Source: a virus. From it: a stretch of DNA of 37,329 nt. The position numbers were made by a program, and so were the translations under genes. Below, piece by piece: positions 1 to 37,329 of the stretch. The notes beneath the pieces are model-generated. The model saw only the letters and a list, made by a program, of their open reading frames with translations, made no database searches and was not told the origin of the DNA. Within the stretch, counting starts at the first letter, position 1. The number at the start of each line of letters is the position of its first letter. The DNA lies in IMG/VR virus record IMGVR_UViG_3300012138_000002, positions 1 through 37,329 of that record; one strand, given 5' to 3'.

Positions 1-123
1 GATATACTGAATTACCAGTCGATACAGCTGCGTATTGTGAATAAGATACCGCCGGATATCATTACATCGGGAAACCTGCTGGCAAACTACTGGTATCTGG
101 TAGAGCATGACAGCGACCAGACC
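1..123. repeat. Direct terminal repeat, copy 1 (123 nt)
   Basis: I compared the strings by eye and 1-123 equals 37207-37329 with no mismatch. Confidence 0.95.
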
Positions 124-537
124 AATACGACCGACTATGTAACTTACGATGGTGTGAACCATAAGGTAGGCGATTCGATTTTGGTACAGGCCGGTACGCT
201 TACATTTACAAAATCCGGCAACGTACATTTGCGCCGTTGCTGGCATAAGGATTTTGATTTTGATACGGAAGTAACAGACAAAGCCTTTTGGACGAATGAA
301 CAAAGGCCTGAATGGTGTGATGTGTTGCCGGAAGATACAAGGTGCCTGATGCAAAACAATCACCCTTTGTCAATTGAGATGATGAGAGGTGAAGACGGCA
401 AATATATCACCACAGGGCATCCCGAATACTATAACAGGATACTGGGTGCCTCTGGGGTACAATCGCCTGATGATATCTTTATAAGCGGCACATATATGCA
501 GCTTCGTTTAACAATATCAACTATAAATCCAATGTAA
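1..537 (+). CDS. C-terminal part (178 aa) of the junction-spanning putative tail fibre/tailspike ORF
   Basis: Reading phase 1 is open from position 1 to TAA 535-537 and continues the ORF that is open from 35809 to 37329. The track ORF 37-537 is only the part after an internal GTG. Confidence 0.85.
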   Translation, partial: DILNYQSIQLRIVNKIPPDIITSGNLLANYWYLVEHDSDQTNTTDYVTYDGVNHKVGDSILVQAGTLTFTKSGNVHLRRCWHKDFDFDTEVTDKAFWTNEQRPEWCDVLPEDTRCLMQNNHPLSIEMMRGEDGKYITTGHPEYYNRILGASGVQSPDDIFISGTYMQLRLTISTINPM

Positions 538-538
538 T

Positions 539-709
539 ATGGCAGATTTTGATAATGGCTTACCTCCTGCAGGTACGGATGTAACAGATAGCAGTGTAAA
601 TGCTGTGGATTACAGTACAGGCGAAGCGGAAACCGGAATAGAAAACAGGATAGCCGGTGCAACTTATAGTAAGGAAGATGCCGGGCAGAACTGGGCAACG
701 TTTTTATAG
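539..709 (+). CDS. Small hypothetical protein (56 aa, MADFDNGLPPAGTDV...)
   Basis: ATG 539 lies 1 nt after the upstream stop and TAG is at 707-709. The ORF is below the track length cutoff. It fits the tight plus-strand packing of the operon. Confidence 0.4.
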   Translation: MADFDNGLPPAGTDVTDSSVNAVDYSTGEAETGIENRIAGATYSKEDAGQNWATFL

Positions 710-735
710 TTATGTATTATGAATGATATTTATAT

Positions 736-1347
736 ATGAAAGATATTTTTGAACAGTTCCAATTTATAAAACCTATGCTTGATACAAGCTCATCAAAAGT
801 GCAGGATTCGGCTTTCTGGAGTGGTATAGGAACGACAGTTTGCTATTTTGTTACTCATGGGTTCAGCTACGTTGCTGATACGATCTTAGGAATATCCCTA
901 TATATGTTGGTAGCCTTTTTCTCAATAATGATAGTTGATTATGTGACTGGCTACCGGGCATCGAGAAAAGAGGGAGATAAACCCCGATCAAAGAAAGGGC
1001 TAAGGTGGGTTGTTAAACTGTTTGCCTATTTATTTTCATTATATATTATAAATGCTCTTGTAATAGATGCTAGACGCCTCAATTCGGTTTTTCCTCTTCA
1101 TGAATATATCCCTTTTGTATTGGAGGTTTTCAAATACCTGATCCTCTTTTTCATTGTCCGCTGGGAAACGAAAAGCATTGATGAGAATTTTAATCGCTTA
1201 GGCTATAATTTTAAAATATTTGGAATGTTCGACATAATTTTCGATGGTGTAATTGGTATATTCAACAAAACGATAAAAGAAAAAACAGGAGTTGATAATG
1301 TAATAAAAGAAAAGGAGGAAAAAGAAGATGGCAACACAATTAACTAA
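736..1347 (+). CDS. Holin (Phage_holin_4_1-like multi-TM protein)
   Basis: Several hydrophobic helices are present. IMIVDYVTGY..SKKGLRWVVK and WETKSIDENFNRLG resemble the D-Y-x-T-G and E-x-x-S-I-x-E-N motifs of the toxin-secretion/phage-lysis holin family (recalled). The gene overlaps the endolysin start by 20 nt. Confidence 0.75.
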   Translation: MKDIFEQFQFIKPMLDTSSSKVQDSAFWSGIGTTVCYFVTHGFSYVADTILGISLYMLVAFFSIMIVDYVTGYRASRKEGDKPRSKKGLRWVVKLFAYLFSLYIINALVIDARRLNSVFPLHEYIPFVLEVFKYLILFFIVRWETKSIDENFNRLGYNFKIFGMFDIIFDGVIGIFNKTIKEKTGVDNVIKEKEEKEDGNTIN

Positions 1348-1753
1348 AAATTTCACGATGGAGGAACTCTCCCACTCGAATACAGCCGTTTTAAAGGGCT
1401 TAAAAAACTCTCCTGAAGAATGGCAGCAAATCAACCTGAAAAAGCTTGCCATGCGCTTGCTGCAACCCCTAAGGGATATTTACGGGGAACCGTTCATTAT
1501 CAACAGCGGGTACCGTTCGCAGGAAGTGAATGAGGCTGTCGGAGGAATACCAAGCTCACAGCATACAAAGGGACAGGCCGCCGATGTTCAGGTTAAAGAT
1601 CCGCGAAAGCTACTAGCAGCTCTTTTAAAAAGTGGCTTAGACTTCGATCAGGCTATTTTATATCAGGATGGAAGAAATAACTTTCTGCATATGTCTTATA
1701 ATTCAGGGCATAACAGAAAACAAGTGTTGTATTCTAAAGGAACAAAGCCATGA
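1328..1753 (+). CDS. Endolysin, peptidase M15A/M15_3 family (zinc D-Ala-D-Ala carboxypeptidase-like)
   Basis: SGYRS...SSQHTKGQAADV...FLHMSY matches the S-x-H-x-x-G-x-A-x-D plus distal His zinc-binding layout of M15 cell-wall peptidases. The gene sits between the holin and the spanin candidate. Confidence 0.85.
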   Translation: MATQLTKNFTMEELSHSNTAVLKGLKNSPEEWQQINLKKLAMRLLQPLRDIYGEPFIINSGYRSQEVNEAVGGIPSSQHTKGQAADVQVKDPRKLLAALLKSGLDFDQAILYQDGRNNFLHMSYNSGHNRKQVLYSKGTKP

Positions 1754-2166
1754 AACTACGATTTCCAAAAGACGATGCCGACAGGTTTTTGATTATTGCC
1801 GTTGCAGTAGTCATGTTGTTCCTTTTGCTGCTGTGTGCGGGATGCAAACCCCAGTATATACCGGTAGAAAGTATCAAAACTGAATACAGGGATAGATATA
1901 TACATGATTCGATATTCGAAAAAGAATACATCAATACTTACCAGAAAGGGGATACGGTGTTCAAAGACAGGTTTGTTTATGTATACAAGGATAAACTTAT
2001 GAAAGATACGGTAAACATAACCGATACTATCCGGGTGCCCTATCCTGTCTCTGAATATATAGAGGTAAACAAGCAAGCCTGGTATCAGAGCATATTACAA
2101 TGGATAGGTTTGTTCGCCTTATTCTTCATTGTGGGATTTATATCATATAAGATAAAAAGAAAATAG
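1750..2166 (+). CDS. Unimolecular spanin candidate (N-terminal lipoprotein signal plus C-terminal TM anchor)
   Basis: ATGA overlap with the endolysin stop. The N-terminus MKLRFPKDDADRFLIIAVAVVMLFLLLLCAGC has a lipobox-like LCAGC. The C-terminus WIGLFALFFIVGFISYKIKRK is a TM helix followed by basic residues. The middle is rich in beta-prone residues. Confidence 0.6.
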   Translation: MKLRFPKDDADRFLIIAVAVVMLFLLLLCAGCKPQYIPVESIKTEYRDRYIHDSIFEKEYINTYQKGDTVFKDRFVYVYKDKLMKDTVNITDTIRVPYPVSEYIEVNKQAWYQSILQWIGLFALFFIVGFISYKIKRK

Positions 2167-2316
2167 ACTTTAAGCCCCGGTTCAGGCTTAAAAAGAACCT
2201 CCCGACCCTCCCACAGAAGGTAGTAACTTCCGGGGGATTGGGACACGAAAAGAAGGCTTTCGCATCTTGGCCGAGAGGCAAAATCAACTAAATGATTTAC
2301 TAATTGATGCAAAAGT

Positions 2317-2535
2317 ATGAAAAAGAATTACATTGCAAAGCGAAAAAGCACAATTGTACGCAACAATCAGGTTCACACTATCTACAATGAACTGAAAAAC
2401 CAATACGGAAACACTGTTTTTAATAACCTGTCCCGCTCGTTTATCTATCAGGAGATAAGCCGGAGGACAGGTTTATGTGTAAAGACAATAAGTAATATAT
2501 TGAATCATTGTACACTCGGGGATGAGGTGTTATAA
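2317..2535 (+). CDS. Small basic protein with a possible helix-turn-helix (72 aa)
   Basis: IYQEISRRTGLCVKTISNILNH looks like an HTH. The gene is followed by a hairpin terminator. Confidence 0.5.
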   Translation: MKKNYIAKRKSTIVRNNQVHTIYNELKNQYGNTVFNNLSRSFIYQEISRRTGLCVKTISNILNHCTLGDEVL

Positions 2536-2552
2536 AATATGTTTTAGAGCAT

Positions 2553-2590
2553 AAAAAAGCCTACTGATGAAAGAGTAGGCTTAAAATCTT
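2553..2590. terminator. Bidirectional hairpin terminator between convergent genes
   Basis: A 9-bp stem AAGCCTACT (2557-2565) pairs with AGTAGGCTT (2574-2582) around an 8-nt loop. An A-run on the left side gives a U-run for the minus-strand transcript. AAAATCTTT lies on the right side. Confidence 0.7.
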
Positions 2591-2614
2591 TACGGTGTGG
2601 CACCTCCGCAATAT

Positions 2615-3178
2615 TCATATTTTATCTTCATTCTTTTTCTGATTTTTCAGATCCTCCCGATCCAATTCCTTTTGATAAAAATGCCCTCTTAATACGATCA
2701 ATCCCAGACCTATAATATTTATAGTTGTCGTAGATAGAAGAACTATTGTTACTTGATAACCGATAGTTAGCTTGATATTCCATTTATCAAAAAGGCCTCC
2801 CTCTAACAGTAAAATGGCAAGGACAATCATTAAATATACAGATATTACATATTTAGCCCATTTCTCTAATCTTTTTCGGGCAGATGTATTTTCCATATGT
2901 CTATGCAGAGAAATAAACTGGGCGCATTTTTCTATTGTTTCTTTATTGTAAGACTGATCCGTTTGCAATAAAATCTCAACTTGACTTATTAAGTTTAAAT
3001 CTTTTTTAGGACGCACAGATCTTAGAGGAGAGCAAAAAAATCTTTTGATATTATACCAAACTTTAAAAGCGCCATGTCTCCAGGATATATTTATATCATT
3101 TTTCTTTGATTCAAAAAAATTGGTAAGACTGACATTTTCACTTATCCCAGGTTTAATATCTCCCGTGTCATTGTTCAT
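2615..3178 (-). CDS. Two-TM membrane protein, candidate toxin/effector partner of the Panacea-domain protein
   Basis: About 105 aa of soluble N-terminus is followed by the helices YVISVYLMIVLAILLLEGGL and VTIVLLSTTTINIIGLGLIVL and then a charged tail. The start overlaps the upstream gene by 11 nt. I recognised no family. Confidence 0.7.
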   Translation of the reverse strand: MNNDTGDIKPGISENVSLTNFFESKKNDINISWRHGAFKVWYNIKRFFCSPLRSVRPKKDLNLISQVEILLQTDQSYNKETIEKCAQFISLHRHMENTSARKRLEKWAKYVISVYLMIVLAILLLEGGLFDKWNIKLTIGYQVTIVLLSTTTINIIGLGLIVLRGHFYQKELDREDLKNQKKNEDKI

Positions 3179-3641
3179 ATTTGGGAAAATAGTTTTTTAT
3201 TAGATCGTCTGATATTTCTTTATTCCACTTCGCCTCTCCTTCTTCATATACCGTTTTATGCCATGGGCCGCCTTCCTGATGAGACCATTCACTCAGGCTC
3301 ATTGCTGATTTATTATGAAATTTTTTAACAACATCATTTATGATATTAAAAGCTATCCGGTCAGCTTCAAATTTATAAATAGGAAGACATGTCACATCGG
3401 GTATAACTCCCGGGGAAAAATATTTATTTACTCGTGGAAAAACCGGACCAAAGGGCCATGCTTTAGGTGAATCATCTGTGAAAAGTTTATTGTCAGTTGT
3501 GGAAAGATATGTGCCATATGCCATATATAGCAACTTTTGCATTTGAGTTTTATTCAGAGCGACTCCATGCTTATTGTATGCTATCCAATTTATCAGATCG
3601 GAGCATTCTAAGCTTGTAAGAGATAGAGTATTATTGCTCAT
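3168..3641 (-). CDS. panA: Panacea (DUF4065, SocA/GepA-like) domain protein, PanA-type antitoxin candidate
   Basis: TQMQKLLYMAYGTYLSTTDNKLFTDDSPKAWPFGPVFPRV matches the conserved L-Q-K-L-L-Y ... f-x-A-W-x-x-G-P-V core of DUF4065 (recalled). Confidence 0.8.
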   Translation of the reverse strand: MSNNTLSLTSLECSDLINWIAYNKHGVALNKTQMQKLLYMAYGTYLSTTDNKLFTDDSPKAWPFGPVFPRVNKYFSPGVIPDVTCLPIYKFEADRIAFNIINDVVKKFHNKSAMSLSEWSHQEGGPWHKTVYEEGEAKWNKEISDDLIKNYFPKYEQ

Positions 3642-3658
3642 ATAAAATATTGTTTCTG

Positions 3659-3689
3659 CAAAAATACATTTTAATTATTATAATACAAA
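3659..3689 (-). promoter_or_regulatory. Bacteroidota-type promoter for the panA operon
   Basis: On the minus strand, TATTTTTG (plus strand CAAAAATA, 3659-3666) is the -7 box and TTTG (plus strand CAAA, 3686-3689) is the -33 box. They are 19 nt apart. The -7 box lies 18 nt upstream of ATG 3641. Confidence 0.55.
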
Positions 3690-3849
3690 TACTTAACTCT
3701 CTTTTTTATTTTACATACTATCTGCAATTCTTTCCTTTTTCCCTGCAAATCCTGCCTTTTTATAGAAAAGTATCTTTTCCCAGACCTCCTTTGTTTATCG
3801 AATTTTGCAGTAACCGCGCTATTGCGGGTAACTAATAAATCTTATCGAT

Positions 3850-4713
3850 ATGGTAGAAACAAGAAATGAATCGATCGGCGGATACTACCCGGGAGCAGTG
3901 GGCGGTTACGGCGGCGGATTCGGTCATGACGGTATCCTGGGGCTTATCGCTCTATTGGCATTATTCAGAGGGAACCTTTTCGGAGGCAACCACGAAGGAG
4001 CGGGGGCGAACCTTGCCGAAATACAGAACCAGCTGAGCAATATCCGCGCTGATATCGGAGACGCCAAGTATGACAATCTTTCCGGCACATTGCAGCAGAC
4101 TATCGGCCTGTTAGGGGAGATAAACGCCGGGCGTCTGGAAAACATGAGCGCATTGCTGTCACAGACCAATGTCCTTCAGGGCGGTTTGTTCGGGTTGCAG
4201 AAAGATATTCTTCAATCGGCAAACGGCACCAATATGGCAATCGCTCAATCCACATTCGGACTTTCACGCCAGTTGGACGCCAACGCCGCTGCTGCGGCTG
4301 CCTGTTGCTGCGAGACTAACCTGAACCTGACCAAGCTAGGATATGAAAATATCATAGCTAACCTGAACCAGACAAACCAGCTTCAACGTCAGATGGATGC
4401 CAATGCTGCGGCCGCTGCCGCCTGTTGCTGCGAAACGAACCTGAATATCGAACGTACCGCGTTTGCTACCCAGCTTCGTGACCTGGAGAATAAATGTGAT
4501 ACCGACCGTCAGCTTGCCGAGATCAAGTGCCTTATCAAAGATACGGCTAAGGATCAGGAGTTAGCCCGTCTTTCAAGATTGGAAAGCGAAGCATTTATTG
4601 CTAACCAGATCAACAAGTCTATCAGCACTACCGTAGGCAGCTGGTCTGCCGCCGCGCAGTTCAACGGTGTGACTTACCCGAGCCCTCCGTTCCCGTTCTC
4701 CGGTGCATTTTGA
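3850..4713 (+). CDS. Hypothetical Gly-rich, membrane-anchored, coiled-coil-like protein with two DANAAAAAACCCETNLN motifs
   Basis: 287 aa. The N-terminus GGYGGGFGHDGILGLIALLALF is followed by Q/N/L-rich heptad-like sequence. A 19-codon motif occurs twice (4270-4326 and 4390-4446). I recognised no family. Confidence 0.8.
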   Translation: MVETRNESIGGYYPGAVGGYGGGFGHDGILGLIALLALFRGNLFGGNHEGAGANLAEIQNQLSNIRADIGDAKYDNLSGTLQQTIGLLGEINAGRLENMSALLSQTNVLQGGLFGLQKDILQSANGTNMAIAQSTFGLSRQLDANAAAAAACCCETNLNLTKLGYENIIANLNQTNQLQRQMDANAAAAAACCCETNLNIERTAFATQLRDLENKCDTDRQLAEIKCLIKDTAKDQELARLSRLESEAFIANQINKSISTTVGSWSAAAQFNGVTYPSPPFPFSGAF

Positions 4714-4734
4714 TTTGAAAGTTTTTCAGGTATG

Positions 4735-4761
4735 GGGGAGATTATTCTCCCCTGTTTTATT
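4735..4761 (+). terminator. Intrinsic terminator after the CCC-motif gene
   Basis: GGGGAGA (4735-4741) pairs with TCTCCCC (4746-4752) around a 4-nt loop, followed by TGTTTTATT. Confidence 0.75.
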
Positions 4762-4780
4762 AAACATTAAAAATTAAATT

Positions 4781-5188
4781 ATGTATCAATATAACAATCC
4801 GTTGCTATCCCAATACCAGGCGCAATTAAATTCGCTGAGGAATAAGTATAATGAGGAACTGAAGAATATACAGGAAGGTATACGCCGGGAAGAATCCAAC
4901 ATCAGGGGGCAATTCCAGGGAGCACCCGCCCCGCAGCCATCACCTGTGCAACAACCCGTGCCGGAACAACCTGCAACAGAAATGCAGCCTGTAATCATTC
5001 CGAACGATATAAAGATACTGGCCGTGCTGGGGGACATAAAAGGAATATTGGAGCGGGCTTTTCCGAAAGCGGAAGCCGCCGGCGAAACTGTTATCCAGCC
5101 GGAACCCGCTAAGGCTGATGTCCCCGAAGCAGCCGATGATGTAAAACCAGAACCTAAATTAAAGAAAAATGAAGGAACTAAAGGATAA
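4781..5188 (+). CDS. Hypothetical protein with a Pro/Gln-rich centre (135 aa)
   Basis: ATG ORF with a coiled-coil-like N-terminus followed by APAPQPSPVQQPVPEQP. No family recognised. Confidence 0.6.
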   Translation: MYQYNNPLLSQYQAQLNSLRNKYNEELKNIQEGIRREESNIRGQFQGAPAPQPSPVQQPVPEQPATEMQPVIIPNDIKILAVLGDIKGILERAFPKAEAAGETVIQPEPAKADVPEAADDVKPEPKLKKNEGTKG

Positions 5189-5339
5189 ACTCGAAACCGA
5201 ACTCAAGCAGCTGGAAGCGGAGATCCTCAAAGAAGGATTGACCGACAAGCGGCTGGATCTGCTTATCAGACTCGAAAAGGCAATACACCATCTCCCGGAG
5301 ATGAAAGGACATAACCCCTCAATGTTTGAAATGCCATGA
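5169..5339 (+). CDS. Small coiled-coil protein (56 aa, MKELKDKLETELKQLEAEILKEG...)
   Basis: ATG 5169 and TGA 5337-5339, which forms an ATGA overlap with the next gene. Below the track cutoff. Confidence 0.45.
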   Translation: MKELKDKLETELKQLEAEILKEGLTDKRLDLLIRLEKAIHHLPEMKGHNPSMFEMP

Positions 5340-5869
5340 ATAAGCAGGAAATAAAATCATTATTGCAGCAGGCTATGGATGCTATCAGTATGGCCCAATG
5401 CCTGGAAGAAGACCTGATGTGCAAGGCACAAAGGATAGGGCTTCAGGGGGAGAAACGCAGGCAACGCTATGAGAGCGCCAAATCGTACAACCTTATCAAG
5501 TACCTCAAATGTGATGCTTTCGACGCCTACGGGATAGAACTGGAGCATAAGGCCGGTACGGCTCCCGCACAGCAGATAGGAGGTATGAAGGGATATTTCG
5601 ACGTATTCCTGAATAAGCAGGAGCAGCTATACGATGTACTGCATACCATCGCTAACAAGCTGGTAGCGGTTAACTGCCAGTATTACGCCAAATTGCTGTA
5701 TGACAAATGCGCCTGTATCGTTGAGGATATAAAATATGCAAGGCGGACAATTCTTGAGGGCAACCTTGTGAACTGGGCTCCTGAGTTTATCCTGCTGCAT
5801 CAGACCACCTTAGAGAATGTGCATGACCATTTCGAGGAAAAAGAAAAGGAAGTCGGCTACAACTATTAG
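5336..5869 (+). CDS. Hypothetical protein (177 aa)
   Basis: ATG ORF coupled to both neighbours. No motif recognised. Confidence 0.65.
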   Translation: MNKQEIKSLLQQAMDAISMAQCLEEDLMCKAQRIGLQGEKRRQRYESAKSYNLIKYLKCDAFDAYGIELEHKAGTAPAQQIGGMKGYFDVFLNKQEQLYDVLHTIANKLVAVNCQYYAKLLYDKCACIVEDIKYARRTILEGNLVNWAPEFILLHQTTLENVHDHFEEKEKEVGYNY

Positions 5870-6134
5870 CTGGGAGCGGTGCAAGGCTTTTTTCGGGTAC
5901 CGCTGCGCTTATTGCGGTAAAGCCGGCAAAATGACAAAAGACCATATCATACCCCGCTATCATGGCGGCGGGGATATGGTCTTGAATCTTATCCCGGCCT
6001 GCCAGTCCTGCAATTCATCCAAGGGTAAAAAGAATGTAGACAGCTGGTACCGGGGACAGCCCTTTTACTCACCCTTCAGGGAGCAGCTGATCCGGCAATA
6101 TTTAATTGAAATCTCTTTAAAACTTATAAGATGA
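5817..6134 (+). CDS. HNH endonuclease
   Basis: CAYCGK...DHIIPRYHGGGDMVLNLIPACQSCNSSKG is the C-x-x-C ... D-H ... N ... C-x-x-C-N HNH layout. The gene overlaps the upstream gene by 53 nt if ATG 5817 is used. Confidence 0.85.
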   Translation: MCMTISRKKKRKSATTISWERCKAFFGYRCAYCGKAGKMTKDHIIPRYHGGGDMVLNLIPACQSCNSSKGKKNVDSWYRGQPFYSPFREQLIRQYLIEISLKLIR

Positions 6135-6460
6135 TACATACATTAGCATTACATTTATTGTTTACCGTGATAATAAGCCTGTCCTGTATCGGGATAAACG
6201 CTACCACATGGCGGGATATGGTATTTGCCGGACTGGCTGACAGGATAGAGAAGTATATTACCGGGCTGATAGGGCTTGAGGCGGGTTGCGCCCTGTGTAA
6301 ACCTTTGTTCCGTTGCCCTATGTGCATGGCCAGTTTCTGGACGCTCCTGTTCTGGCTCATCTGCGGGATGGTATTTAATCCGGTGTTGATGATGCTGACC
6401 GTGTGCGGCCTGAATGTGGTACTGGTGAGTTTTATTGTAAATATTATGCCCGATGAATAA
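6131..6460 (+). CDS. Small multi-TM membrane protein with paired CxxC motifs (DUF1360-like?)
   Basis: Hydrophobic helices flank GCALCKPLFRCPMCMASFW. ATGA overlap with the HNH gene. The DUF1360 resemblance is a weak recollection. Confidence 0.65.
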   Translation: MIHTLALHLLFTVIISLSCIGINATTWRDMVFAGLADRIEKYITGLIGLEAGCALCKPLFRCPMCMASFWTLLFWLICGMVFNPVLMMLTVCGLNVVLVSFIVNIMPDE

Positions 6461-6572
6461 GGAAGATATATTAAAAGAAATAAACGCCCTGATCGACCGT
6501 CTGGAGGATGCATGCGGGGCGGATATTAATCAGATGATAGAACGGTTGAAAAAACTGGTGGGGATGTTGTAG
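6453..6572 (+). CDS. Possible very small protein (39 aa, MNKEDILKEINALIDRLEDA...)
   Basis: ATG 6453 overlaps the upstream stop and TAG is at 6570-6572. Helical and charged composition. Confidence 0.3.
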   Translation: MNKEDILKEINALIDRLEDACGADINQMIERLKKLVGML

Positions 6573-6684
6573 GAAAGTGAGGAAAATTTTCTTGAAATAT
6601 CGCAGTATCGTACTGTTTACGTTGAAAAATGTGGTAAATTTACCTTAATAATTTACAGAGAGGTAAACGAAAAAGCATTTAACC

Positions 6685-6945
6685 ATGGATGTCAAAGATA
6701 TTATTAGAGAAGAATCTGAAAAAGGAAATATAGTTATACTGACAGAGGAAGGCTTGAAAATAGGCAATGTGCAAGAATTTATCAAGCAGCCTGCAAGCGG
6801 TATTCTGTACGACCTGAACAGACTCGAAGGGGTTACAATGATGTTTATTGACGACCAAAAACGCATAAATGATTATGCTTGCGCTATGGTTATCAGAGCA
6901 TTGAAAGATAGAATAGAAGAATTGGAGACCAATTTTAAAGTATAA
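6685..6945 (+). CDS. Hypothetical protein (86 aa)
   Basis: ATG ORF with ordinary protein-like composition, followed immediately by a strong plus-strand terminator. The antisense ORFs 6645-6866 and 6679-7026 look non-protein-like. Confidence 0.6.
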   Translation: MDVKDIIREESEKGNIVILTEEGLKIGNVQEFIKQPASGILYDLNRLEGVTMMFIDDQKRINDYACAMVIRALKDRIEELETNFKV

Positions 6946-6950
6946 GTTTT

Positions 6951-6990
6951 TATCATCCCCAGAATTCTGGGTATGATAATTTTCCTTTTC
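6951..6990 (+). terminator. Intrinsic terminator ending the 3850-6945 block
   Basis: A 12-bp stem TATCATCCCCAG (6951-6962) pairs with CTGGGTATGATA (6967-6978) with one mismatch around an AATT loop, followed by ATTTTCCTTTTC. Confidence 0.8.
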
Positions 6991-7278
6991 GGTACATCGT
7001 GTTTTGCGGCATCCTATAAAAACCAAAATACCTTATCATAAATATCACATTAACATTTCACATCATTTTATAATTGTAGAAGCGGATTCTATAAGCATCT
7101 TATTGTATAAACAATAGTTGCGATAGCAATTATCTATATCTGATTTCGAAACTTATATAACCGGTCATTGTTATACGGTTAATATTCTGTTAAGAAAATA
7201 TGCTGAACAACATAGTTGTTTGAGAAACTTTTTTAAGCAAAATAGTTAATTTTATGATGTTTACGAAAGTGTTTAAGC

Positions 7279-7315
7279 TACACTTATAAATTACACTTAT
7301 TAAAATTACACTTAT
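7279..7315. repeat. Three direct copies of TACACTTAT
   Basis: Copies lie at 7279-7287, 7292-7300 and 7307-7315. The last overlaps the stop codon of the repressor gene. Confidence 0.8.
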
Positions 7316-7917
7316 TTCGGTTCGATGTTTCTCATTAAATATTGTATCATTTCGTCTTTGGCGATAATATTGTTTTTCAAGGCCTCAATAGTTTCGTCCT
7401 TAGACTTAATGATACCCTCCAGCCGGGCAATTTCCGTTTTCAGGCTGGTGACTTCCTGTAGGAGTAATTCTTCTGCATTAGAGTTCTGTTTTATTACGAT
7501 TTCCTCCGGCCGGATTATTTTTTTGCCCTCTAAATCACCTACATTGACGATATGACCGTGTTTTCCGGTTTTAAAATCAGGGCTGTTATTCCTTCCGTTA
7601 TTAATACCAATAGATGTACCATTGTTATTCTTTATATCTGTATTAACCATATCCCTACCTGCGTTATATTCTGCTTTCAACATATTGCCTTCGCCCGTTA
7701 GGAGCCAATCAATATTAAAGATGTTTTCAAAAGCTACATTAAATCTTTTTATAAAATTGTCCGTTAAATATTTACTATCACCATTTAAAGCTGCATTTGT
7801 ATTATTATAATTAGCTCCTACTTTTTTTGCAATATCCTTTTGTATAGAATATCTATTTATATATTCTTTTTCAATTAAATACAATATCGCTTTATTAATT
7901 CTGTTAATCTTTTCCAT
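7312..7917 (-). CDS. CI-like phage repressor (Phage_CI_repr-type HTH plus C-terminal coiled coil, no S24 peptidase domain)
   Basis: The N-terminal HTH region ends in the hallmark NIDWLLTGEGNML. The C-terminus EELLLQEVTSLKTEIARLEGIIKSKDETIEALKNNIIAKDEMI is heptad-like. The gene lies on the opposite strand to the early genes. Confidence 0.7.
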   Translation of the reverse strand: MEKINRINKAILYLIEKEYINRYSIQKDIAKKVGANYNNTNAALNGDSKYLTDNFIKRFNVAFENIFNIDWLLTGEGNMLKAEYNAGRDMVNTDIKNNNGTSIGINNGRNNSPDFKTGKHGHIVNVGDLEGKKIIRPEEIVIKQNSNAEELLLQEVTSLKTEIARLEGIIKSKDETIEALKNNIIAKDEMIQYLMRNIEPK

Positions 7918-7945
7918 AAATATAGTATTACACGTATTATGTTAG

Positions 7946-7953
7946 TATATTTG
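7946..7953 (+). promoter_or_regulatory. Possible -7 box TATATTTG
   Basis: Matches TAnnTTTG. No TTTG lies at the -33 distance. Confidence 0.3.
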
Positions 7954-8060
7954 CAAAGTAATCAATCGTGGCGATTACGTTAAAGATATAAGGTTTAAAC
8001 CTAAAGAGCGATGTACAGCCACGATCTGTGCGTTGCTCTTGTTTTTATATTTAAACTATT

Positions 8061-8276
8061 ATGAGATTCATTAAATTTAAATTCTCTGAATATCGTAGGA
8101 GAAAGCTTCGAAAAAAAATCATTTTAGCTATTTTACAAAATCCAGAACATGGTGCTAATAAAAATTTGGAGCCTGTAGATGACGATGGTATATGCCCTAT
8201 AACCGGACTTTCAGCACAACTGGAATTATTTATAGAAGACGGAATACAACCTTTTTTATCTCGCCATAGCAAATAG
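8061..8276 (+). CDS. Doubtful small ORF (71 aa) between minus-strand genes
   Basis: ATG ORF about 100 nt downstream of the 7946 box. It is convergent with 8288-8758 with only an 11-nt gap. No motif recognised. Confidence 0.3.
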   Translation: MRFIKFKFSEYRRRKLRKKIILAILQNPEHGANKNLEPVDDDGICPITGLSAQLELFIEDGIQPFLSRHSK

Positions 8277-8287
8277 ATAAAGAACTG

Positions 8288-8758
8288 TTACATCGTCACA
8301 TAATGGTCTGATGACAGCTTTGATATCCTAGGCGGTTTACTTGTTGTTTTTGTCTCAATAGAAGGCCAAACAACAGAAATATCAAACTTAACGCTGGTAA
8401 CCGATATATTTTGTGTATCGGTTTCTTTTTGCCCGCCAATACCAAAGCTTCCGAATAAAACACCGATTCCCGCTTTATCTGCCGTTCCGTCACTCGAAGT
8501 AAGAGCAACTTCAAACAATATTTTACTTACAACCCGGTTAACCCCGTCTACTTTTGTTTTTCCCTTATCTGCGTTATCTATCCAACTTGGATTTATCACT
8601 GCGTTCAGGCTTTTACAACTATTCTGCGCCGATACAATACCCTCCGATATTTGCACTAAAGTTTCTTTTATAAATTCTTTCAATTCCACGATAATAATTT
8701 TAGTTAATGTTAGCCGTTTATATATGCCTGGCAATTTTACTCGTTCGACAAAATACAA
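8288..8758 (-). CDS. Trypco2-like small protein (effector-associated domain family)
   Basis: ELKEFIKETLVQISEGIVSAQ is a helix. ILFEVALTSSDGTADKAGIGVL...GGQKETDTQNISVTSVKFDISVVWP then resembles the helix plus beta-meander pattern of trypco2 proteins (recalled). The likelier start is GTG 8689, which would leave a 47-nt gap to the upstream gene. Confidence 0.55.
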   Translation of the reverse strand: MYFVERVKLPGIYKRLTLTKIIIVELKEFIKETLVQISEGIVSAQNSCKSLNAVINPSWIDNADKGKTKVDGVNRVVSKILFEVALTSSDGTADKAGIGVLFGSFGIGGQKETDTQNISVTSVKFDISVVWPSIETKTTSKPPRISKLSSDHYVTM

Positions 8759-9252
8759 TTAATATACTTTGCCATTCTTTTATTATCCTTGTCTTTTACT
8801 TCTTTTTCGTAATCACCCTTATTCGTAGACATCCTTATTTTATTCATTCCTATAGATGATATTTTTATAAAAATATCATTATCTACATAATATATAGGTG
8901 TAGTTGTTGATACTGTACCTATGGAATTAATTTCTGAAAATTTAGATTCGTTAGGATATAATTTAATTGTTTCATCGTTATTTAATTTGATATACAAAGG
9001 GTCTTCTTTTCTAACAGTTAAAACATCATGGCTGGTAAGCTTTAGGAATATAGCTTTTTGTTCATCTATACTTGCGAAAAATATAGTAAATATATGTTTG
9101 TCAGTGAATTTATAATTAATATTAAACGATTCCGTTGCAACCGATTTTATTCCGGTAAACTCATCTACTTCATTCTTTAAAAATTTACATTGTGCATTAA
9201 GGTTTAAAGTTGTGAATGCTACTAGCATTAATACGAACAGCAGTTTCTTCAT
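8737..9252 (-). CDS. Secreted protein with a Bacteroidota-type signal peptide (171 aa)
   Basis: MKKLLFVLMLVAFTTLNLNAQ is followed by a beta-rich mature part. The gene is very AT-rich. It is the first gene of the leftward unit. Confidence 0.75.
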   Translation of the reverse strand: MKKLLFVLMLVAFTTLNLNAQCKFLKNEVDEFTGIKSVATESFNINYKFTDKHIFTIFFASIDEQKAIFLKLTSHDVLTVRKEDPLYIKLNNDETIKLYPNESKFSEINSIGTVSTTTPIYYVDNDIFIKISSIGMNKIRMSTNKGDYEKEVKDKDNKRMAKYINCILSNE

Positions 9253-9325
9253 AATTGTAGTTTTAGTTGTTAATAATCTATTTTCTTAATTAAAGTTAAT
9301 ATACGGATATTATACGTGTTTTATT

Positions 9326-13331: not shown

Positions 13332-13700
13332 ATGAAAATATATATTGAAAAAACAAAACAGGAAGCCGTACATTCAGAGCTAATGGAAGTTATGTGTATC
13401 GCTACGGCATTAAGGGATAAAATACACCTTGTCAAAGATAGTGAAGAATTGAAATATGATGACTGGCCGGATATACTTGACGCCATGCAAACCGAACTGA
13501 ACGAATTTAAAGCGAAGATTAGCGAAATGATTGGCAATTTAATGATAACCGCAGTTGATAAGATTATGGATCCTGACAATAAAATAAGGTTACACTGTCA
13601 AGATGAACAACATCTAGAGATATCAAATAAGGAAGATAAAATATATAGGGATAGGATTCTATATATAAAACTTATAACAATTTATAATTATGGAATTTAA
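13332..13700 (+). CDS. Hypothetical protein (122 aa; the alternative start 13299 gives 133 aa)
   Basis: ATG 13332 lies 5 nt after the upstream stop. ATG 13299 would overlap the upstream gene by 29 nt. Confidence 0.55.
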   Translation: MKIYIEKTKQEAVHSELMEVMCIATALRDKIHLVKDSEELKYDDWPDILDAMQTELNEFKAKISEMIGNLMITAVDKIMDPDNKIRLHCQDEQHLEISNKEDKIYRDRILYIKLITIYNYGI

Positions 13701-14400
13701 CGAATTAAAAGACGAATTATTGAAGCGTGCCAAGAGTAGAAATGCTTGCGAAAAAGGTTATGCTATGGGACTTAGATCGAACAGTAAAGCTGATTTACTA
13801 AAGACTATTACGGATAACTGGTTTTGGGTATTTCGTAATGCTAAGATAGTAGATGCTCAATTTTTAGAGGAACATTTCACGCAGGAAGAGCTTAATCAAG
13901 CCGGGATATTTACGCAAAAAGTACATGTGGTTACTTCTATGAACGCATTTGCTTGCGGTTCATCCACTGTCGAGGCTTACGGTTCATCCACTATCACGGC
14001 TTACGATTCATCCACTGTCACGGCTTGCGATTCATCCACTATCACGGCTTACGATTCATCCACTGTCACGGCTTGCGATTCATCCACTATCACGGCTTAC
14101 GATTCATCTACTGTTAAGGCTTGCGGTTCATCCACTATCAAGGCTTGCGATTCATCCACTATCACGGCTTACGGTTCATCCACTGTTAAGGCTTGCGGTT
14201 CATCCACTGTCACGGCTTACGATTCATCTACTGTTAAGGCTTGCGATTCATCCACTGTCGAGGCTTACTCTAATTCTTATGTGGAGAACCGCACCGGAAA
14301 GGAAATCTTACCTCAGTCTGATTATGCAATAGTGAAAGATTATCATAAGCATAAGATATATATCAAGAAGTCTAAGTTTGAAATAGTTGAGGTCGAATGA
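13690..14400 (+). CDS. Repeat protein: about 87-aa N-terminal domain plus 13 tandem octapeptides A-[CY]-[GD]-S-S-T-[VI]-x
   Basis: ATG ORF. The repeats are in frame (13951 is codon phase 1). The likely fold is a beta-solenoid. Function unknown. Confidence 0.75.
   Translation: MEFNELKDELLKRAKSRNACEKGYAMGLRSNSKADLLKTITDNWFWVFRNAKIVDAQFLEEHFTQEELNQAGIFTQKVHVVTSMNAFACGSSTVEAYGSSTITAYDSSTVTACDSSTITAYDSSTVTACDSSTITAYDSSTVKACGSSTIKACDSSTITAYGSSTVKACGSSTVTAYDSSTVKACDSSTVEAYSNSYVENRTGKEILPQSDYAIVKDYHKHKIYIKKSKFEIVEVE
13951..14286 (+). repeat. 13 tandem 24-nt repeats plus one degenerate unit
   Basis: The unit is GCTTRCGRTTCATCYACTRTYRNG. Units 3-4 (13999-14046) are identical to units 5-6 (14047-14094). 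Confidence 0.95.
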
Positions 14401-14791: not shown

Positions 14792-15661
14792 ATGGCTTTA
14801 AGAGATCAACCGTATATCCCTCTTTATATACAGGACTTTTTGACGGACGAAAAGCTAATAGAATGCACGGCGTCCGCTACCGGCGTTTATATTCGATTAA
14901 TGTGCCTTATGCACAAGTCAGATCAATACGGCAAAATTTTGCTTAAGCAAAAGGACAAGCAAAACACTGAGCAAAACACTGAGCAAAACACTGAGCAAAA
15001 CACTGAGCAAAACATCAGACAAGTAAAAAATTTTGCTCGTAAAATTGCTAAAAACATGCCGTATAAAATTGATGAAATTGAAAGTGCGTTAACCGAGCTG
15101 ATAGAGGAAAAAGTCCTGTATATCGAAGGAGACAGTTTATGTCAAAAAAGAATGATAAAAGATAATGATATTAGCGAAAAGCGTTCTAAATCAGGCAAAA
15201 AAGGAAGAGTTTCAAGCTTATCAAAAGATAGCGGAGTTAATTTTGCTCAAGCAAAACCTCAAGCAAAACCTCAAGCAAAACCTCAAGCAAAACCTCAAGC
15301 AAATACTGAATATGAAAATGAATATGAAAATGAATATGAAAATAAAAGGATAGAAAAAGGGGGTATGGGGGAAAAGGAAAGGAAAGATGTTTATCCCGAT
15401 GATTTTGAAAATTTCTTTGTCGCCTATCACAAAGTAACAGGCTTAAGCAAATCGGATAAGAAGCCGGCTTTCAACCACTGGAAGAAATTGACCAAGGCGG
15501 AAAAGCAAAAAGCAGCGGATAATATACAGCCGTTTTATGATTCCCTGAAAAACAAAGAGTATTGCAAGAAATGCAGGACGTACCTGTCTGACAAGAGTTT
15601 CAATGATGAATTCAAGATTAATCCGGCGGACGATCCGTCAAAACCAAGATTCATGTGCTAA
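14792..15661 (+). CDS. Replication initiator/organiser-like protein (DUF1376-like N-terminus) with three low-complexity arrays
   Basis: PYIPLYIQDFLTDEKLIECTASATGVYIRLMCLM resembles the DUF1376 N-terminus. The C-terminus FENFFVAYHKVTGLSKSDKKPAFNHWKKL is typical of phage replication organisers (recalled). The gene lies directly upstream of the primase-helicase. Confidence 0.55.
   Translation: MALRDQPYIPLYIQDFLTDEKLIECTASATGVYIRLMCLMHKSDQYGKILLKQKDKQNTEQNTEQNTEQNTEQNIRQVKNFARKIAKNMPYKIDEIESALTELIEEKVLYIEGDSLCQKRMIKDNDISEKRSKSGKKGRVSSLSKDSGVNFAQAKPQAKPQAKPQAKPQANTEYENEYENEYENKRIEKGGMGEKERKDVYPDDFENFFVAYHKVTGLSKSDKKPAFNHWKKLTKAEKQKAADNIQPFYDSLKNKEYCKKCRTYLSDKSFNDEFKINPADDPSKPRFMC
14959..15018 (+). 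repeat. Five tandem 12-nt units GCAAAACACTGA (last unit degenerate)
   Basis: Units start at 14959, 14971, 14983, 14995 and 15007. They encode (QNTE)n. Confidence 0.95.
15251..15346 (+). repeat. Four to five tandem GCAAAACCTCAA units followed by three TATGAAAATGAA units
   Basis: GCAAAACCTCAA units start at 15251, 15263, 15275 and 15287, with a degenerate one at 15299. TATGAAAATGAA units start at 15311, 15323 and 15335. They encode (AKPQ)n and (YENE)n. Confidence 0.95.
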
Positions 15662-17466: not shown

Positions 17467-17547
17467 GAATCCTGACCGGATGAATAAATAGTCGAATTAC
17501 CTATCTGGGATGTCCGTCATGCGATTTTCGCTACGAAATGATATACT

Positions 17548-17570
17548 TACCAAAAAGAAAAAATAATTGA
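17548..17570 (+). repeat. 23-nt direct repeat TACCAAAAAGAAAAAATAATTGA, copy 1
   Basis: Identical to 18017-18039. It ends 41 nt upstream of ATG 17612. Confidence 0.9.
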
Positions 17571-17611
17571 GACGTAAACGCTAAAAACAAGTAATTTTTA
17601 AAAATAAGAAA

Positions 17612-17947
17612 ATGGAAACAATAACAGAAGTACGGGAACTTGAAAAGAAGTTCACTAAGAACGGAGAAACATTTACACAGGTAGCATACAATCCCGATAC
17701 GCAGATTTATATCTACAAGCGGGAACATCCTGCCGGCATGGTGGCGTATGAGGTGTTTAAACGAAGAGTAGAAAAACATTTCAAAATGCAGGGTAGTTAT
17801 GTAGCGTATCCCAGTGATAACGCTTTTGGGAATTGGGCTTTGTACATCGTGAAGTATGAAGAGGCTGTTAAGCATATGAACAAGGGTATAAAATACGATG
17901 TGAAATATTTTCAGGAGCAATCACGTAAAAGACGGCTGAATGAATAG
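17612..17947 (+). CDS. Hypothetical protein (111 aa)
   Basis: ATG ORF with ordinary composition. The overlapping minus-strand ORF 17531-17920 is hydrophobic and low-complexity. Confidence 0.6.
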   Translation: METITEVRELEKKFTKNGETFTQVAYNPDTQIYIYKREHPAGMVAYEVFKRRVEKHFKMQGSYVAYPSDNAFGNWALYIVKYEEAVKHMNKGIKYDVKYFQEQSRKRRLNE

Positions 17948-18016
17948 ACGTAAAGTGTCGTTTGGGGCTATTTTTGATGCTTGGTAAAAAATATAACCCC
18001 CCAAACAATACACGAG

Positions 18017-18039
18017 TACCAAAAAGAAAAAATAATTGA
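18017..18039 (+). repeat. 23-nt direct repeat, copy 2
   Basis: Identical to 17548-17570. It ends 15 nt upstream of ATG 18055. Confidence 0.9.
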
Positions 18040-18054
18040 AATACGGGCTTTAAA

Positions 18055-18258
18055 ATGCGTAAAATAAAAACCATCAAAAATGAAATGGAACTCATAACTG
18101 ATTTTGAAAAGGCATTGGATTATCTCGAAGTGATGAATAGAGACATAGGCAATATCACTTTGAATTATTTCATACTGAAAATGAGAAAGAAATATAAACT
18201 AAAATCGGAATTAAAAATGACCGAAAACAAAGCGTTAGGAAAGGAGGAAGAAAGATGA
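18055..18258 (+). CDS. Hypothetical protein (67 aa)
   Basis: ATG ORF preceded by the 23-nt repeat. Confidence 0.45.
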   Translation: MRKIKTIKNEMELITDFEKALDYLEVMNRDIGNITLNYFILKMRKKYKLKSELKMTENKALGKEEER

Positions 18259-18743: not shown

Positions 18744-18751
18744 TACTTTTG
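18744..18751 (+). promoter_or_regulatory. -7 box TACTTTTG of the integrase promoter
   Basis: Matches TAnnTTTG 22 nt upstream of ATG 18773. The expected -33 position is occupied by the TTCGTGAC repeat. Confidence 0.45.
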
Positions 18752-18772
18752 AAAAAAATAATTCCAAATCTT

Positions 18773-20038
18773 ATGATAAGCGTCAAATTCTATTTGAAAA
18801 ATCCAAAGGCTGACACTTCATCAATTTTCTTTCGCTTCCATTACGGAGCTTTTAAGATGGTAGGCGGAAAGAAAAAGTATTTGCCTATGCAGTACCATAC
18901 CGATGAGGCTATAAACCCGGCATTCTGGAATAAAAAGAAAGGAGAAGCTAAGCAGGTTAGCAAATTTCCCCAGCATCCGGAGTTCAATGCCCGGTTAAGT
19001 AACATCCGGGATAAAGTACTGACAATTTACCGGAGGCTATTAAATGATGATGCGGAGATATCGAATGATATACTAAGCAATGAATTTGATTTGATATTCC
19101 GAAAACACCGGAACCGGACGGTAAGCAGGCATGAGCTGATGCAGTTCATACCCTACTTTATAGAGACCAGCAATAAGACACAAAGCACAAAGAAAAGCTA
19201 CAGGCAACTACTTAACGACCTGCAGGAGTATGAGCAAAGTAAGAACATAGTTCTGACATTCGGCCGCATAGATATCGATTTTCATGATAATTTCGTCCAG
19301 TTCCTGCAATCTAAGAAGTATGCGCCCAATACGATAGGCACACGAATAAAGGTACTCAAAACGTTTATGAACGTAGCATATGAACGAAACTTACATACGA
19401 ATTTAGATTTCAAGAAAAGAGCTTTTGACAAGCCGAAAGAAGAGACAACGGCCGTTTACCTCAACGAGAAAGAATTAGATGCGATCCATCGGCTGGATTA
19501 TTCGAATAATAAGGCATATGATCGTGTCCGGGACTGGTTTCTGATTGCTGCATATACCGGGCTTCGTTTCTCCGATTTACAGCGTCTTACACGGGACGAT
19601 ATTCAGGACGGGGCGATAACATCTAAAACAGTCAAAACCGGCACTATGGTTTCTATTCCGCTTCATACGATAGTCAAAAGCATACTGGAGAAATACGATT
19701 ATACTTTACCGAAACTGATAAATAACCATAAATTTAACGAGTATATCAAAGAGGTTGCGAAAGATGCGGGCATAGACGAACCTGTAATCATAGAGGAAAC
19801 TAAAGGGCATTTAAAAAGCAAAACCACAGAAAAGAAGTATAATCTAATCTCGGCACACACCGCCCGGCGTTCATTTGCAACAAATGCATATATCGCAGGT
19901 GTGCCTGCCATTCAGATAATGAAAATGACAGGACATAAGACCGAAAAGGCATTTCTAGGCTATATCAAGATATCTGCCAGCGAGAACGCCAAGAAATTAC
20001 AACTACATCCGTTCTTTAATAAAATGATCGTGAAATAA
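18773..20038 (+). CDS. int: Tyrosine recombinase / phage integrase (Bacteroidota type)
   Basis: The catalytic signature is GLRFSDL (R), HTARRSFAT (H-x-x-R) and MTGHKTEKAFLGYIKI (H...Y). The N-terminus MISVKFYLK is typical of the arm-binding domain. The track start 18749 is a TTG lying inside the promoter box. Confidence 0.9.
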   Translation: MISVKFYLKNPKADTSSIFFRFHYGAFKMVGGKKKYLPMQYHTDEAINPAFWNKKKGEAKQVSKFPQHPEFNARLSNIRDKVLTIYRRLLNDDAEISNDILSNEFDLIFRKHRNRTVSRHELMQFIPYFIETSNKTQSTKKSYRQLLNDLQEYEQSKNIVLTFGRIDIDFHDNFVQFLQSKKYAPNTIGTRIKVLKTFMNVAYERNLHTNLDFKKRAFDKPKEETTAVYLNEKELDAIHRLDYSNNKAYDRVRDWFLIAAYTGLRFSDLQRLTRDDIQDGAITSKTVKTGTMVSIPLHTIVKSILEKYDYTLPKLINNHKFNEYIKEVAKDAGIDEPVIIEETKGHLKSKTTEKKYNLISAHTARRSFATNAYIAGVPAIQIMKMTGHKTEKAFLGYIKISASENAKKLQLHPFFNKMIVK

Positions 20039-35822: not shown

Positions 35823-37329
35823 TTTCAAAGATAGGTACTTTTCAGCCAGTGGAGCTGATTTGCTTAGAACGATGAATTATGTCTACTTCTTTTCACCATC
35901 GTATATTGGTGGCGACGGCTCAAGATTAGCTCCATATAGAAGTAATTATTATTACGCTCCCAGAGGTACCACCGGGTTACAAGCGACATCCGCGCTTATA
36001 TTCAGCGGTGGTGTACATAAAGGAACTTTTGATTTGGGTAGTACCGTTTCTACATACAGGCATTTTACCGGTAATGGGATGGGTGTAACAATATTAGGCC
36101 TTTCTATAAACCAACAAGCTCCAATATCCGGTGGAAATAGTTCTACAGCATATTTTAGAGATGTAACGTTGTCTGAATTAATACATTATATTTCAGGATA
36201 TAATGGTATTAACCATTATATTTATTTTTATAATTGTGAGTTTTTAACAGCTCCCGCTATAACTACAACTGCACTTAGTACTGTATATAGTTATGTTACC
36301 AGATCTAAAATAAAAGAATTATTATCCGGCGGAACTATAACTTATCAGAATAATAATTCATTTATAGGCATAAGTACTACAATAAGTTCAATAGCGGGCA
36401 ACCTGCATACATTTGAAAGATGTAACCTTATAATTAATCAGGCTTCACTCGACAGTTACAAGAACAATTACTATGCGTTCGATAACTGCAACTTCCGTAT
36501 AGGCACGGAAACGGAATATACACCGCTTATTGGCGCAACGGCCGAAGTACTAAGGGAAACTTTTGTAAACAGATGCATAGCTGCCGGGCTGACAGTGCCT
36601 GCCGATATTACGGACTATAATATCACATTACCCCTGGGTCGCTGGATTTTTACCACAAACCAGATATTCGAGGGTATTACATGGCATGGCTCGGAAATTA
36701 ATCTGTTTGAGATACCCCGTTTTATCTCATTTGGTTATTCGACTACCAGGGGCACTAAGATACCGATTGTTGCAGGCAACAATACTCCTGCAAGTATTTT
36801 CCCCAACGCTCAAGGTAGCGTTGGATTGATATTTGGAGATGATTCTTTATCTATTGCTTCGAATATCGATATCACGCAAAGGCACGAATTAGTTACAGAG
36901 TCCAAAATAATATGGCTGGGTGGTAAAAAGAAGCTGACCAACATCGACGTGCCGAACAATATGTCGCAATTGTACGGCGTACTGATAGACAGCCTGCCCA
37001 ACCTCGTCGATAAAGAAGCGAATAATATTGTCGAAGCAGGTGAGATGTATATGGTGCGCTCTTTAAATGAAAATGCGGCGTCCATTATCTATAACGGAAA
37101 TACCTATTCTTCCGAGCTAAGTACAAGGAACAATATTTTCAAAGGTGTGGCCGGTGTGAATTCATATACTTTTGCATCAGGCAGTCCGGCAGTCTATAAG
37201 ATAAATGATATACTGAATTACCAGTCGATACAGCTGCGTATTGTGAATAAGATACCGCCGGATATCATTACATCGGGAAACCTGCTGGCAAACTACTGGT
37301 ATCTGGTAGAGCATGACAGCGACCAGACC
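35809..37329 (+). CDS. N-terminal part of the junction-spanning putative tail fibre/tailspike (full length 644 aa = 35809-37206 plus 1-537)
   Basis: ATG 35809. I translated phase 1 by eye to the window end and saw no stop. It is absent from the track because no stop lies inside the window. The short repeats YFYNCEF, FERCNLII and FDNCNFRI suggest a beta-helix. Confidence 0.8.
   Translation, partial: MTQFNFKDRYFSASGADLLRTMNYVYFFSPSYIGGDGSRLAPYRSNYYYAPRGTTGLQATSALIFSGGVHKGTFDLGSTVSTYRHFTGNGMGVTILGLSINQQAPISGGNSSTAYFRDVTLSELIHYISGYNGINHYIYFYNCEFLTAPAITTTALSTVYSYVTRSKIKELLSGGTITYQNNNSFIGISTTISSIAGNLHTFERCNLIINQASLDSYKNNYYAFDNCNFRIGTETEYTPLIGATAEVLRETFVNRCIAAGLTVPADITDYNITLPLGRWIFTTNQIFEGITWHGSEINLFEIPRFISFGYSTTRGTKIPIVAGNNTPASIFPNAQGSVGLIFGDDSLSIASNIDITQRHELVTESKIIWLGGKKKLTNIDVPNNMSQLYGVLIDSLPNLVDKEANNIVEAGEMYMVRSLNENAASIIYNGNTYSSELSTRNNIFKGVAGVNSYTFASGSPAVYKINDILNYQSIQLRIVNKIPPDIITSGNLLANYWYLVEHDSDQT
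37207..37329. repeat. Direct terminal repeat, copy 2 (123 nt)
   Basis: Exact copy of 1-123. It is either an assembly overlap of a circular molecule or a true short DTR. Confidence 0.95.

Follow-up and report, generated by a model that had tools for sequence, protein, structure and literature searches.

The window analysed here is the whole stretch of DNA of the IMG/VR virus record IMGVR_UViG_3300012138_000002, 37,329 nucleotides (nt) in length, and the element under study is a cassette of two minus-strand genes at positions 2553-3689. The upstream gene (panA) encodes a Panacea-domain protein and the downstream gene (panT) encodes a protein with two predicted transmembrane (TM) helices. With good confidence, although short of certainty, we take the pair to be a type II PanA-PanT toxin-antitoxin module that forms an accessory cassette in a temperate Bacteroidales phage. 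The following features were annotated in the cassette:

3659-3689, minus strand: Bacteroides-type promoter motif, TTTG (3689-3686), a 19-nt spacer and TATTTTTG (3666-3659)
3168-3641, minus strand: panA, 157 aa, from the listing of open reading frames (ORFs)
3168-3178, minus strand: panA/panT overlap of 11 nt, ATGAACAATGA, read from the sequence
2615-3178, minus strand: panT, 187 aa, from the ORF listing
2547-2582, minus strand: intrinsic-terminator-like hairpin, a 9-bp stem at 2582-2557 followed by a T-run

An earlier reading of the window, made from the letters alone (the sequence-only reading), had described two minus-strand genes overlapping by 11 nt with their own -33/-7 promoter, a hairpin terminator and an AT-rich composition, and all of these features were recovered in our analysis. 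An independent gene caller made the same two gene calls on another contig. The ATG of panT (3178-3176) lies inside the 3' end of panA, where the overlap reads AAATATGAACAATGA on the reverse strand, so that coupled translation from one mRNA would be possible. The consensus of the Bacteroides -33/-7 promoter is TTTG-N19-21-TAnnTTTG. The motif at 3659-3689 matches it exactly and ends 18 nt before the ATG of panA, a placement that suggests a promoter function. The terminator hairpin folds with a minimum free energy of -19 kcal/mol and a z-score of -2.66. The cassette (2553-3689) has a GC content of 0.331, within the lowest 8% of windows of equal size, the genome as a whole being at 0.393; two further AT-rich islands (~6600-9300 and 17500-18100) equal it in this respect. 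Flanking inverted repeats, the mark of a mobile or invertible cassette, were sought around the cassette and only short chance matches were found.

The upstream protein was identified as DUF4065/Panacea in the sequence-only reading, and this was borne out by the match of PanA to PF13274 (SocA_Panacea/DUF4065) at residues 35-128 with 46.4 bits against a cutoff of 25.7 (E 8.7e-12). PanA also matches phrog_1281 at 3e-27. The PF13274 domain is carried by 120/120 of the listed PanA homologues, for which the NCBI name is "Panacea domain-containing protein". Two motifs, WP.GPVFP and WSH..PW, are invariant in the family, and the GPV signature at G65-P66-V67 (within AWPFGPVFP) was found to be invariant in 17 and in 41 homologues. 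This motif is critical for neutralisation according to Kurata et al. (PMC8832971). PanA is a standalone Panacea protein with no additional DNA-binding, PAD1 or zinc-binding domain. The AlphaFold2 (AF2) model is compact and alpha/beta in character (predicted local distance difference test score, pLDDT, 94.9; predicted template modelling score 0.90), with eight helices and a beta-hairpin at residues 60-67 formed by strands 60-62 and 65-67. The Panacea fold has been described as alpha1-7, beta1-2 (PMC10440598), and the modelled PanA fits this compact helical fold with its two-strand beta element. No true solved relative of PanA was found in the PDB by sequence or profile searches or by Foldseek. 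Shorter PanA calls that begin at an internal methionine exist, of 118 aa from JGI for the window and of 124 aa from NCBI for the Dysgonomonas orthologue (P0392, P0396). We prefer the 157-aa form because the first 33 residues are conserved (S10, L29, T32, Q33) and because of the position of the promoter motif.

The downstream protein could not be placed in the sequence-only reading, which proposed it as a new membrane effector, and this part was not upheld. Judged by homology, the 187-aa protein is a long Bacteroidales form of the described PanT cluster T3 and not a new effector, because its homologues are listed T3 members. The exact sequence of the protein from the Prevotella multiformis DSM 16608 locus (L011) was looked up as WP_040554249.1, which is 45% identical to the phage PanT over residues 24-171 (E 2e-40). 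In Dataset S1 of Kurata et al. 2022 (PMC8832971), WP_040554249.1 is assigned to T3 with WP_007367283.1 as its partner PanA, in the order A|T with a gap of 1, which agrees with the gap of 1 nt measured here. Many of the matches in our profile search are short proteins of ~110-125 aa that cover the C-terminal module only. One of these (P0294) is an exact match to WP_109831389.1 of Reichenbachiella versicolor, which the dataset likewise places in T3, with a gap of 0 (PMC8832971); the gap measured here was the same, and the identity to the phage PanT is 36% (E 2e-6). Profiles of the long and the short forms align by hhalign over residues 87-179 with a probability of 99.9% and an E-value of 4e-31. 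The T3 cluster also contains WP_000019185.1 of E. coli STEC O31, flagged 'TA' in the same dataset, and this protein stopped transcription, translation and replication together, caused strong depolarisation with SYTOX Green uptake, and could be neutralised by the cognate PanA (PMC8832971).

The family is large, with 139 matches in a word-indexed search and at least 1144 clusters at 50% identity in the full profile search, yet no Pfam, NCBIfam or PADLOC model exists for it. PanT itself gave no match in Pfam, NCBIfam or PADLOC and only noise-level matches in PHROGs (E>0.1), and neither PanA nor PanT matches any model of PADLOC-DB v2 (E<=1). No relative of PanT was found in the PDB by profile search or Foldseek, and Foldseek against BFVD returned noise only. 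Searches by tblastn gave no match for the 187-aa PanT among GenBank phages and none for a short-form protein, aimed at the E. coli PanT, among phages and plasmids. The T3 accessions are not listed in the NetFlax supplements.

A SLATT/DUF4231 membrane effector, a comparison raised by the sequence-only reading, was rejected as a candidate: PanT has no match to these families at E<=1, and 0/42 family members match them (25 families listed, E<=0.1).

The sequence-only reading had described two TM helices and a charged tail in PanT, and two hydropathy peaks followed by a tail rich in charged residues were indeed found, the peaks being centred on residues 115-123 and 152-155. The protein can be divided into the following segments:

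2921-3178, minus strand: panT residues 1-86, N-terminal extension present in the Bacteroidales long forms and absent from the short forms
2855-2920, minus strand: panT residues 87-108, invariant basic pre-TM helix HR..ENT.ARKRLEKW
2801-2854, minus strand: panT residues 109-126, predicted TM1, Kyte-Doolittle 19-residue peak of 2.43 at residue 120
2690-2758, minus strand: panT residues 141-163, predicted TM2, Kyte-Doolittle peak of 2.25 at residue 154
2618-2689, minus strand: panT residues 164-187, charged C-terminal tail with 7 K/R and 6 D/E, predicted to be cytoplasmic

Helices were predicted by AF2 at residues 33-48, 59-73, 79-126 and 141-186. The extension is disordered up to about residue 28 and then contains the first two of these helices, with W33, F48 and P51 conserved in the family alignment. 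In the segment before TM1, R93, E96, T98, A100, R101, R103, L104, E105 and W107 are invariant, and this segment is conserved in the short forms too. Residues 1-108 have an isoelectric point of 9.55, in line with the description of T3 by Kurata et al. TM1 falls inside the third AF2 helix and is separated by a short loop from TM2, which carries an invariant polar stripe (LSTTTxNxxGLG) and has L148, T150, T151, T152, G157 and I161 as invariant residues. The stripe is followed by RGHF, in which G165 and F167 are invariant and R164 and H166 nearly so. A hairpin with both termini in the cytoplasm (N-in/C-in) is suggested because basic residues flank the outer ends of both TM helices.

The tight coupling of panA to a two-TM partner, as proposed in the sequence-only reading, was confirmed in a set of 100 homologous loci (31 from genomes and metagenomes, 67 from IMG/VR and two of the short form, making up 48 clusters at 90% PanT identity). 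A panA gene lies directly upstream on the same strand in 97/100 loci, and among the 31 genome and metagenome loci it does so wherever upstream sequence exists. Two of the three exceptions are at contig edges and the third has a 411-bp segment inverted inside panA. The spacing between the two genes is mostly -14 to +3 nt, and the few larger apparent overlaps are probably due to the automatic choice of start codons. A PanT homologue occurs on 67 IMG/VR viral contigs, and the long form is also found in 22 species genomes.

The cassette behaves as an accessory module. The spanin-like gene at 1750-2166 has 72% nucleotide identity to a gene that adjoins PanAT in two other loci (L001 and L002), and the orientation of the cassette relative to this shared gene is inverted compared to L001. 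None of 35 distantly related phage loci with a homologue of the neighbouring 287-aa gene (3850-4713) has the cassette, and about 18 of these loci show an M15 endolysin ~3 kb upstream; the relatives of this gene in IMG/VR are distant only (<=47% identity over short segments) and allow no clean empty-site comparison. Integrases were found near PanAT in 11 clusters, and defence-type genes (Abi_2, AAA_15/21, HsdR) lie beside some of the loci.

Three of the loci showed irregularities. In Hoylesella saccharolytica JCM 17484 (L024, 2493-2954), the WP.GPVFP region of panA is lost by frameshifts and an in-frame TAG while panT is intact, which represents either a draft-sequencing error or a natural orphan toxin. 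The inverted 411-bp panA segment mentioned above (L074, 5488-5898) was recognised by comparison with L073, the two contigs being otherwise 99% identical; it is flanked by GGTTC/GAACC only, panT is followed at a distance of 265 nt by a recombinase gene, and the inversion may be an assembly artefact or real. A contig labelled as an Escherichia coli metagenome-assembled genome (L016) carries a PanA-PanT of Bacteroidales type, with a PanT 45% identical to the protein in the window, and is probably mis-binned.

Taken as a PanA-PanT toxin-antitoxin module, the cassette would work as follows. Both genes would be placed on one mRNA from their own promoter-like motif, with their translation coupled. 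Free PanT would insert its C-terminal module, made up of the basic amphipathic helix and the two TM helices, the second with its invariant Thr/Asn stripe, into the cytoplasmic membrane as an N-in/C-in helical hairpin. It might then oligomerise through the Thr/Asn-lined TM2 and dissipate the membrane potential or permeabilise the membrane, as the E. coli T3 member does. PanA would neutralise PanT by direct protein-protein binding. By analogy with a pair from Bartonella, the likely contact would be the conserved cytoplasmic segment before TM1 up to W107, which makes PanT residues 87-108 the candidate PanA-binding segment. In the Bartonella pair, a standalone Panacea contacts the region before the TM segments of the toxin, and the substitutions Y56A and H120E abolish neutralisation (PMC10440598). 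Pull-downs recovered complexes for five other PanAT pairs, none of them with a membrane toxin, and ClpXP and Lon were dispensable for neutralisation by the PanAs tested (PMC8832971).

The sequence-only reading had proposed that the cassette acts from the prophage in toxin-antitoxin, abortive-infection or superinfection-exclusion fashion, which is plausible. As a speculation, PanAT would be expressed from the prophage and the toxin would be freed upon loss or displacement of PanA, and its service to the phage could then be prophage addiction, abortive infection or superinfection exclusion. We found no paper in which phage defence by any PanAT was demonstrated. On the whole, the observations of the sequence-only reading were confirmed and its interpretation was partly supported.

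Several points weigh against the toxin-antitoxin interpretation as applied to this phage. The link to the E. coli WP_000019185.1 consists of the authors' clustering together with our matches to two other T3 members, and the long-form WP_040554249.1 is marked 'notest' in Dataset S1 (PMC8832971). The AF2 model of PanT is moderately confident (pLDDT 70), and expression in lysogeny is an assumption. The promoter pattern occurs twice in 37 kb compared to 0.84 expected, and two or more occurrences were reached in 23/100 shuffles; since the count alone is statistically non-significant, the support given by the motif comes from its position. Finally, eight PanTs were non-toxic in E. coli (Kurata et al., PMC8832971). 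This last result also favours a benign PanT that resides in the inner membrane of the lysogen, for example in superinfection exclusion by blocking DNA entry, with PanA as its chaperone, regulator or sensor. The sensory role for Panacea favoured by Ernits et al. points in the same direction, and a separate function is conceivable for the long N-terminal extension. We nevertheless consider a benign PanT to be rather improbable, as PanT shares its C-terminal module with the T3 protein whose toxicity has been validated and the strict retention of panA upstream of panT is what would be expected if PanT is harmful alone.

The position of the cassette, just after the holin, the endolysin and the spanin-like gene, raises the question of an accessory role in lysis, in which PanT would be a pore of the holin or pinholin kind that tunes lysis timing and PanA its soluble antiholin. 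The predicted N-in/C-in two-TM topology with a charged tail resembles that of class II holins, a likeness which is not diagnostic, and lysis genes occur within ~5 kb in roughly 10/48 homologue clusters (e.g. L033, L005, L008). However, most loci show no lysis genes nearby, and T3 pairs also occur in non-phage chromosomal settings such as the E. coli locus marked 'NotPhage' and L032. The pair, which has a promoter motif and a terminator to itself, lies on the strand opposite to the lysis genes, it faces either way relative to the spanin-like gene depending on the element, and the phage already has a Phage_holin_4_1 holin. No holin family was matched in Pfam or PHROGs, and a phage holin was rejected as the identity of PanT; a lysis accessory is thus very improbable. 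It is scarcely more credible, and if anything slightly less so, that the pair is a type VI system in which PanA hands the toxin over to a protease of the host, in the manner of SocA and SocB. PanA has a weak similarity to the NCBIfam SocA_antitoxin equivalog model (NF047745), and the two mechanisms need not be exclusive according to Kurata et al., but its score of 65 bits is far under the cutoff of 190, its two-TM partner is a membrane protein that matches no family and is unrelated to SocB, and the tested PanAs formed stable toxin complexes and neutralised without ClpXP and Lon. SocAB type VI was rejected on the score and on the nature of the partner.

Among the known systems closest to the PanA-PanT cassette are two T3 loci. 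The E. coli STEC O31 pair belongs to the same toxin cluster (linked through WP_040554249.1 and WP_109831389.1) and likewise has the antitoxin-then-toxin order, a standalone Panacea ('noNTD') and a charged N-region followed by C-terminal TM helices. It differs in that its genes are 22 nt apart while the phage genes overlap by 11 nt, and in that the cassette described here is phage-borne; the N-terminal extension of ~86 residues in the phage PanT is absent from the short T3 forms examined here. The Prevotella multiformis DSM 16608 pair has the same long toxin form and the same gene order, with a PanA match at E 7e-40, but it is chromosomal and has a 1-nt gap instead of an overlap. The Bartonella choladocola (apis) T12/D11 pair likewise consists of a membrane-depolarising two-TM toxin that is directly neutralised by a standalone Panacea through the region before the TM segments. 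T12 is a cluster separate from T3, compared here by description only, and its authors deem it possibly homologous to T3. The T4 PanT of Helicobacter sp. 13S00482-2 also has a soluble helical N-terminal part, C-terminal TM helices and a depolarising activity, and its gene shows the same -11 overlap with panA; it differs in its cluster, in its coiled-coil (SCP-1-like) N-terminal domain and in that it depolarises without SYTOX uptake. The Panacea domain is also shared by the antitoxin of the type VI SocA-SocB system of Caulobacter, which differs in that SocA serves as an adaptor for ClpXP, while SocB is soluble and inhibits replication.

The assignment to T3 moves a gene that standard databases leave as "hypothetical" into an experimentally anchored toxin family. 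The long-form PanT is common in Bacteroidales genomes, metagenomes and (pro)phages. No new mechanism is revealed, as the pair is an ordinary additional member of the described PanAT kind. Being a self-contained phage cassette with a host-type promoter motif, it lends itself well to testing whether such modules serve prophage addiction or phage defence in the gut microbiota. A further-reaching possibility is that the long toxin form, with its conserved cytoplasmic extension, is an adaptation specific to Bacteroidales phages, and that in a lysogen PanA senses an incoming phage or the loss of the prophage while the extension gates insertion of the pore module into the membrane, which would make the cassette a widespread, uncatalogued abortive-infection or superinfection-exclusion system that prophages of gut Bacteroidales encode. 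We regard this scenario as unlikely.

The genome that carries the cassette is complete and circularly closed at 37,206 bp, because bases 1-123 and 37207-37329 of the window form an exact direct repeat of 123 nt. The phage is temperate and the cassette is positioned just after the lysis genes, as described in the sequence-only reading, which had seen a self-contained cassette in a temperate phage; the genes found in this connection are as follows:

736-1347: holin (Phage_holin_4_1), upstream of the cassette
1328-1753: M15 endolysin, upstream of the cassette
1750-2166, plus strand: spanin-like protein of 138 aa, encoded immediately behind the endolysin, with a lipobox (LLLCAGC) and a TM helix at the C-terminus
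18749-20038: integrase

The product of 1750-2166 resembles a unimolecular spanin. The genome also encodes an ANT/Rha antirepressor, a primase-helicase and the large and small terminase subunits. For both the cassette and the spanin-like gene, the nearest relatives lie on contigs that bear a Dysgonomonas capnocytophagoides protein, and on this ground the phage is probably one of Bacteroidales that infects a Dysgonomonas-like host. A megablast search of positions 1-8000 against annotated GenBank phages gave zero matches.

Several other regions of the window drew our attention. The 287-aa protein encoded at 3850-4713 on the plus strand has a Gly-rich N-terminus and contains DANAAAAAACCCETNLN twice, both copies being encoded by a 65-nt repeat at 4261-4325 and 4381-4445. 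The GC content of its gene is ~0.50 compared to 0.39 for the genome. The protein matches only PHROGs of unknown function. Its distant homologues, present on 35 IMG/VR contigs, frequently follow an M15 endolysin at a distance of ~3 kb. The AT-rich block at 6600-9300 (GC 0.315), the second such block in the window, consists mostly of minus-strand ORFs with no Pfam match above threshold and may contain genes for lysogeny or accessory functions. A 24-nt unit is repeated in tandem about 17 times at 13903-14316 within the ORF 13690-14400, which shows a weak, sub-threshold match to the C-terminal trimerisation (beta-helix) domain of gene product 5 (gp5) of phage T4. Finally, runs of 12-nt repeats of the AGCAAAACACTG and AGCAAAACCTCA types were found at 14946-15014 and 15250-15306, inside the ORF 14792-15661, which has no family match.

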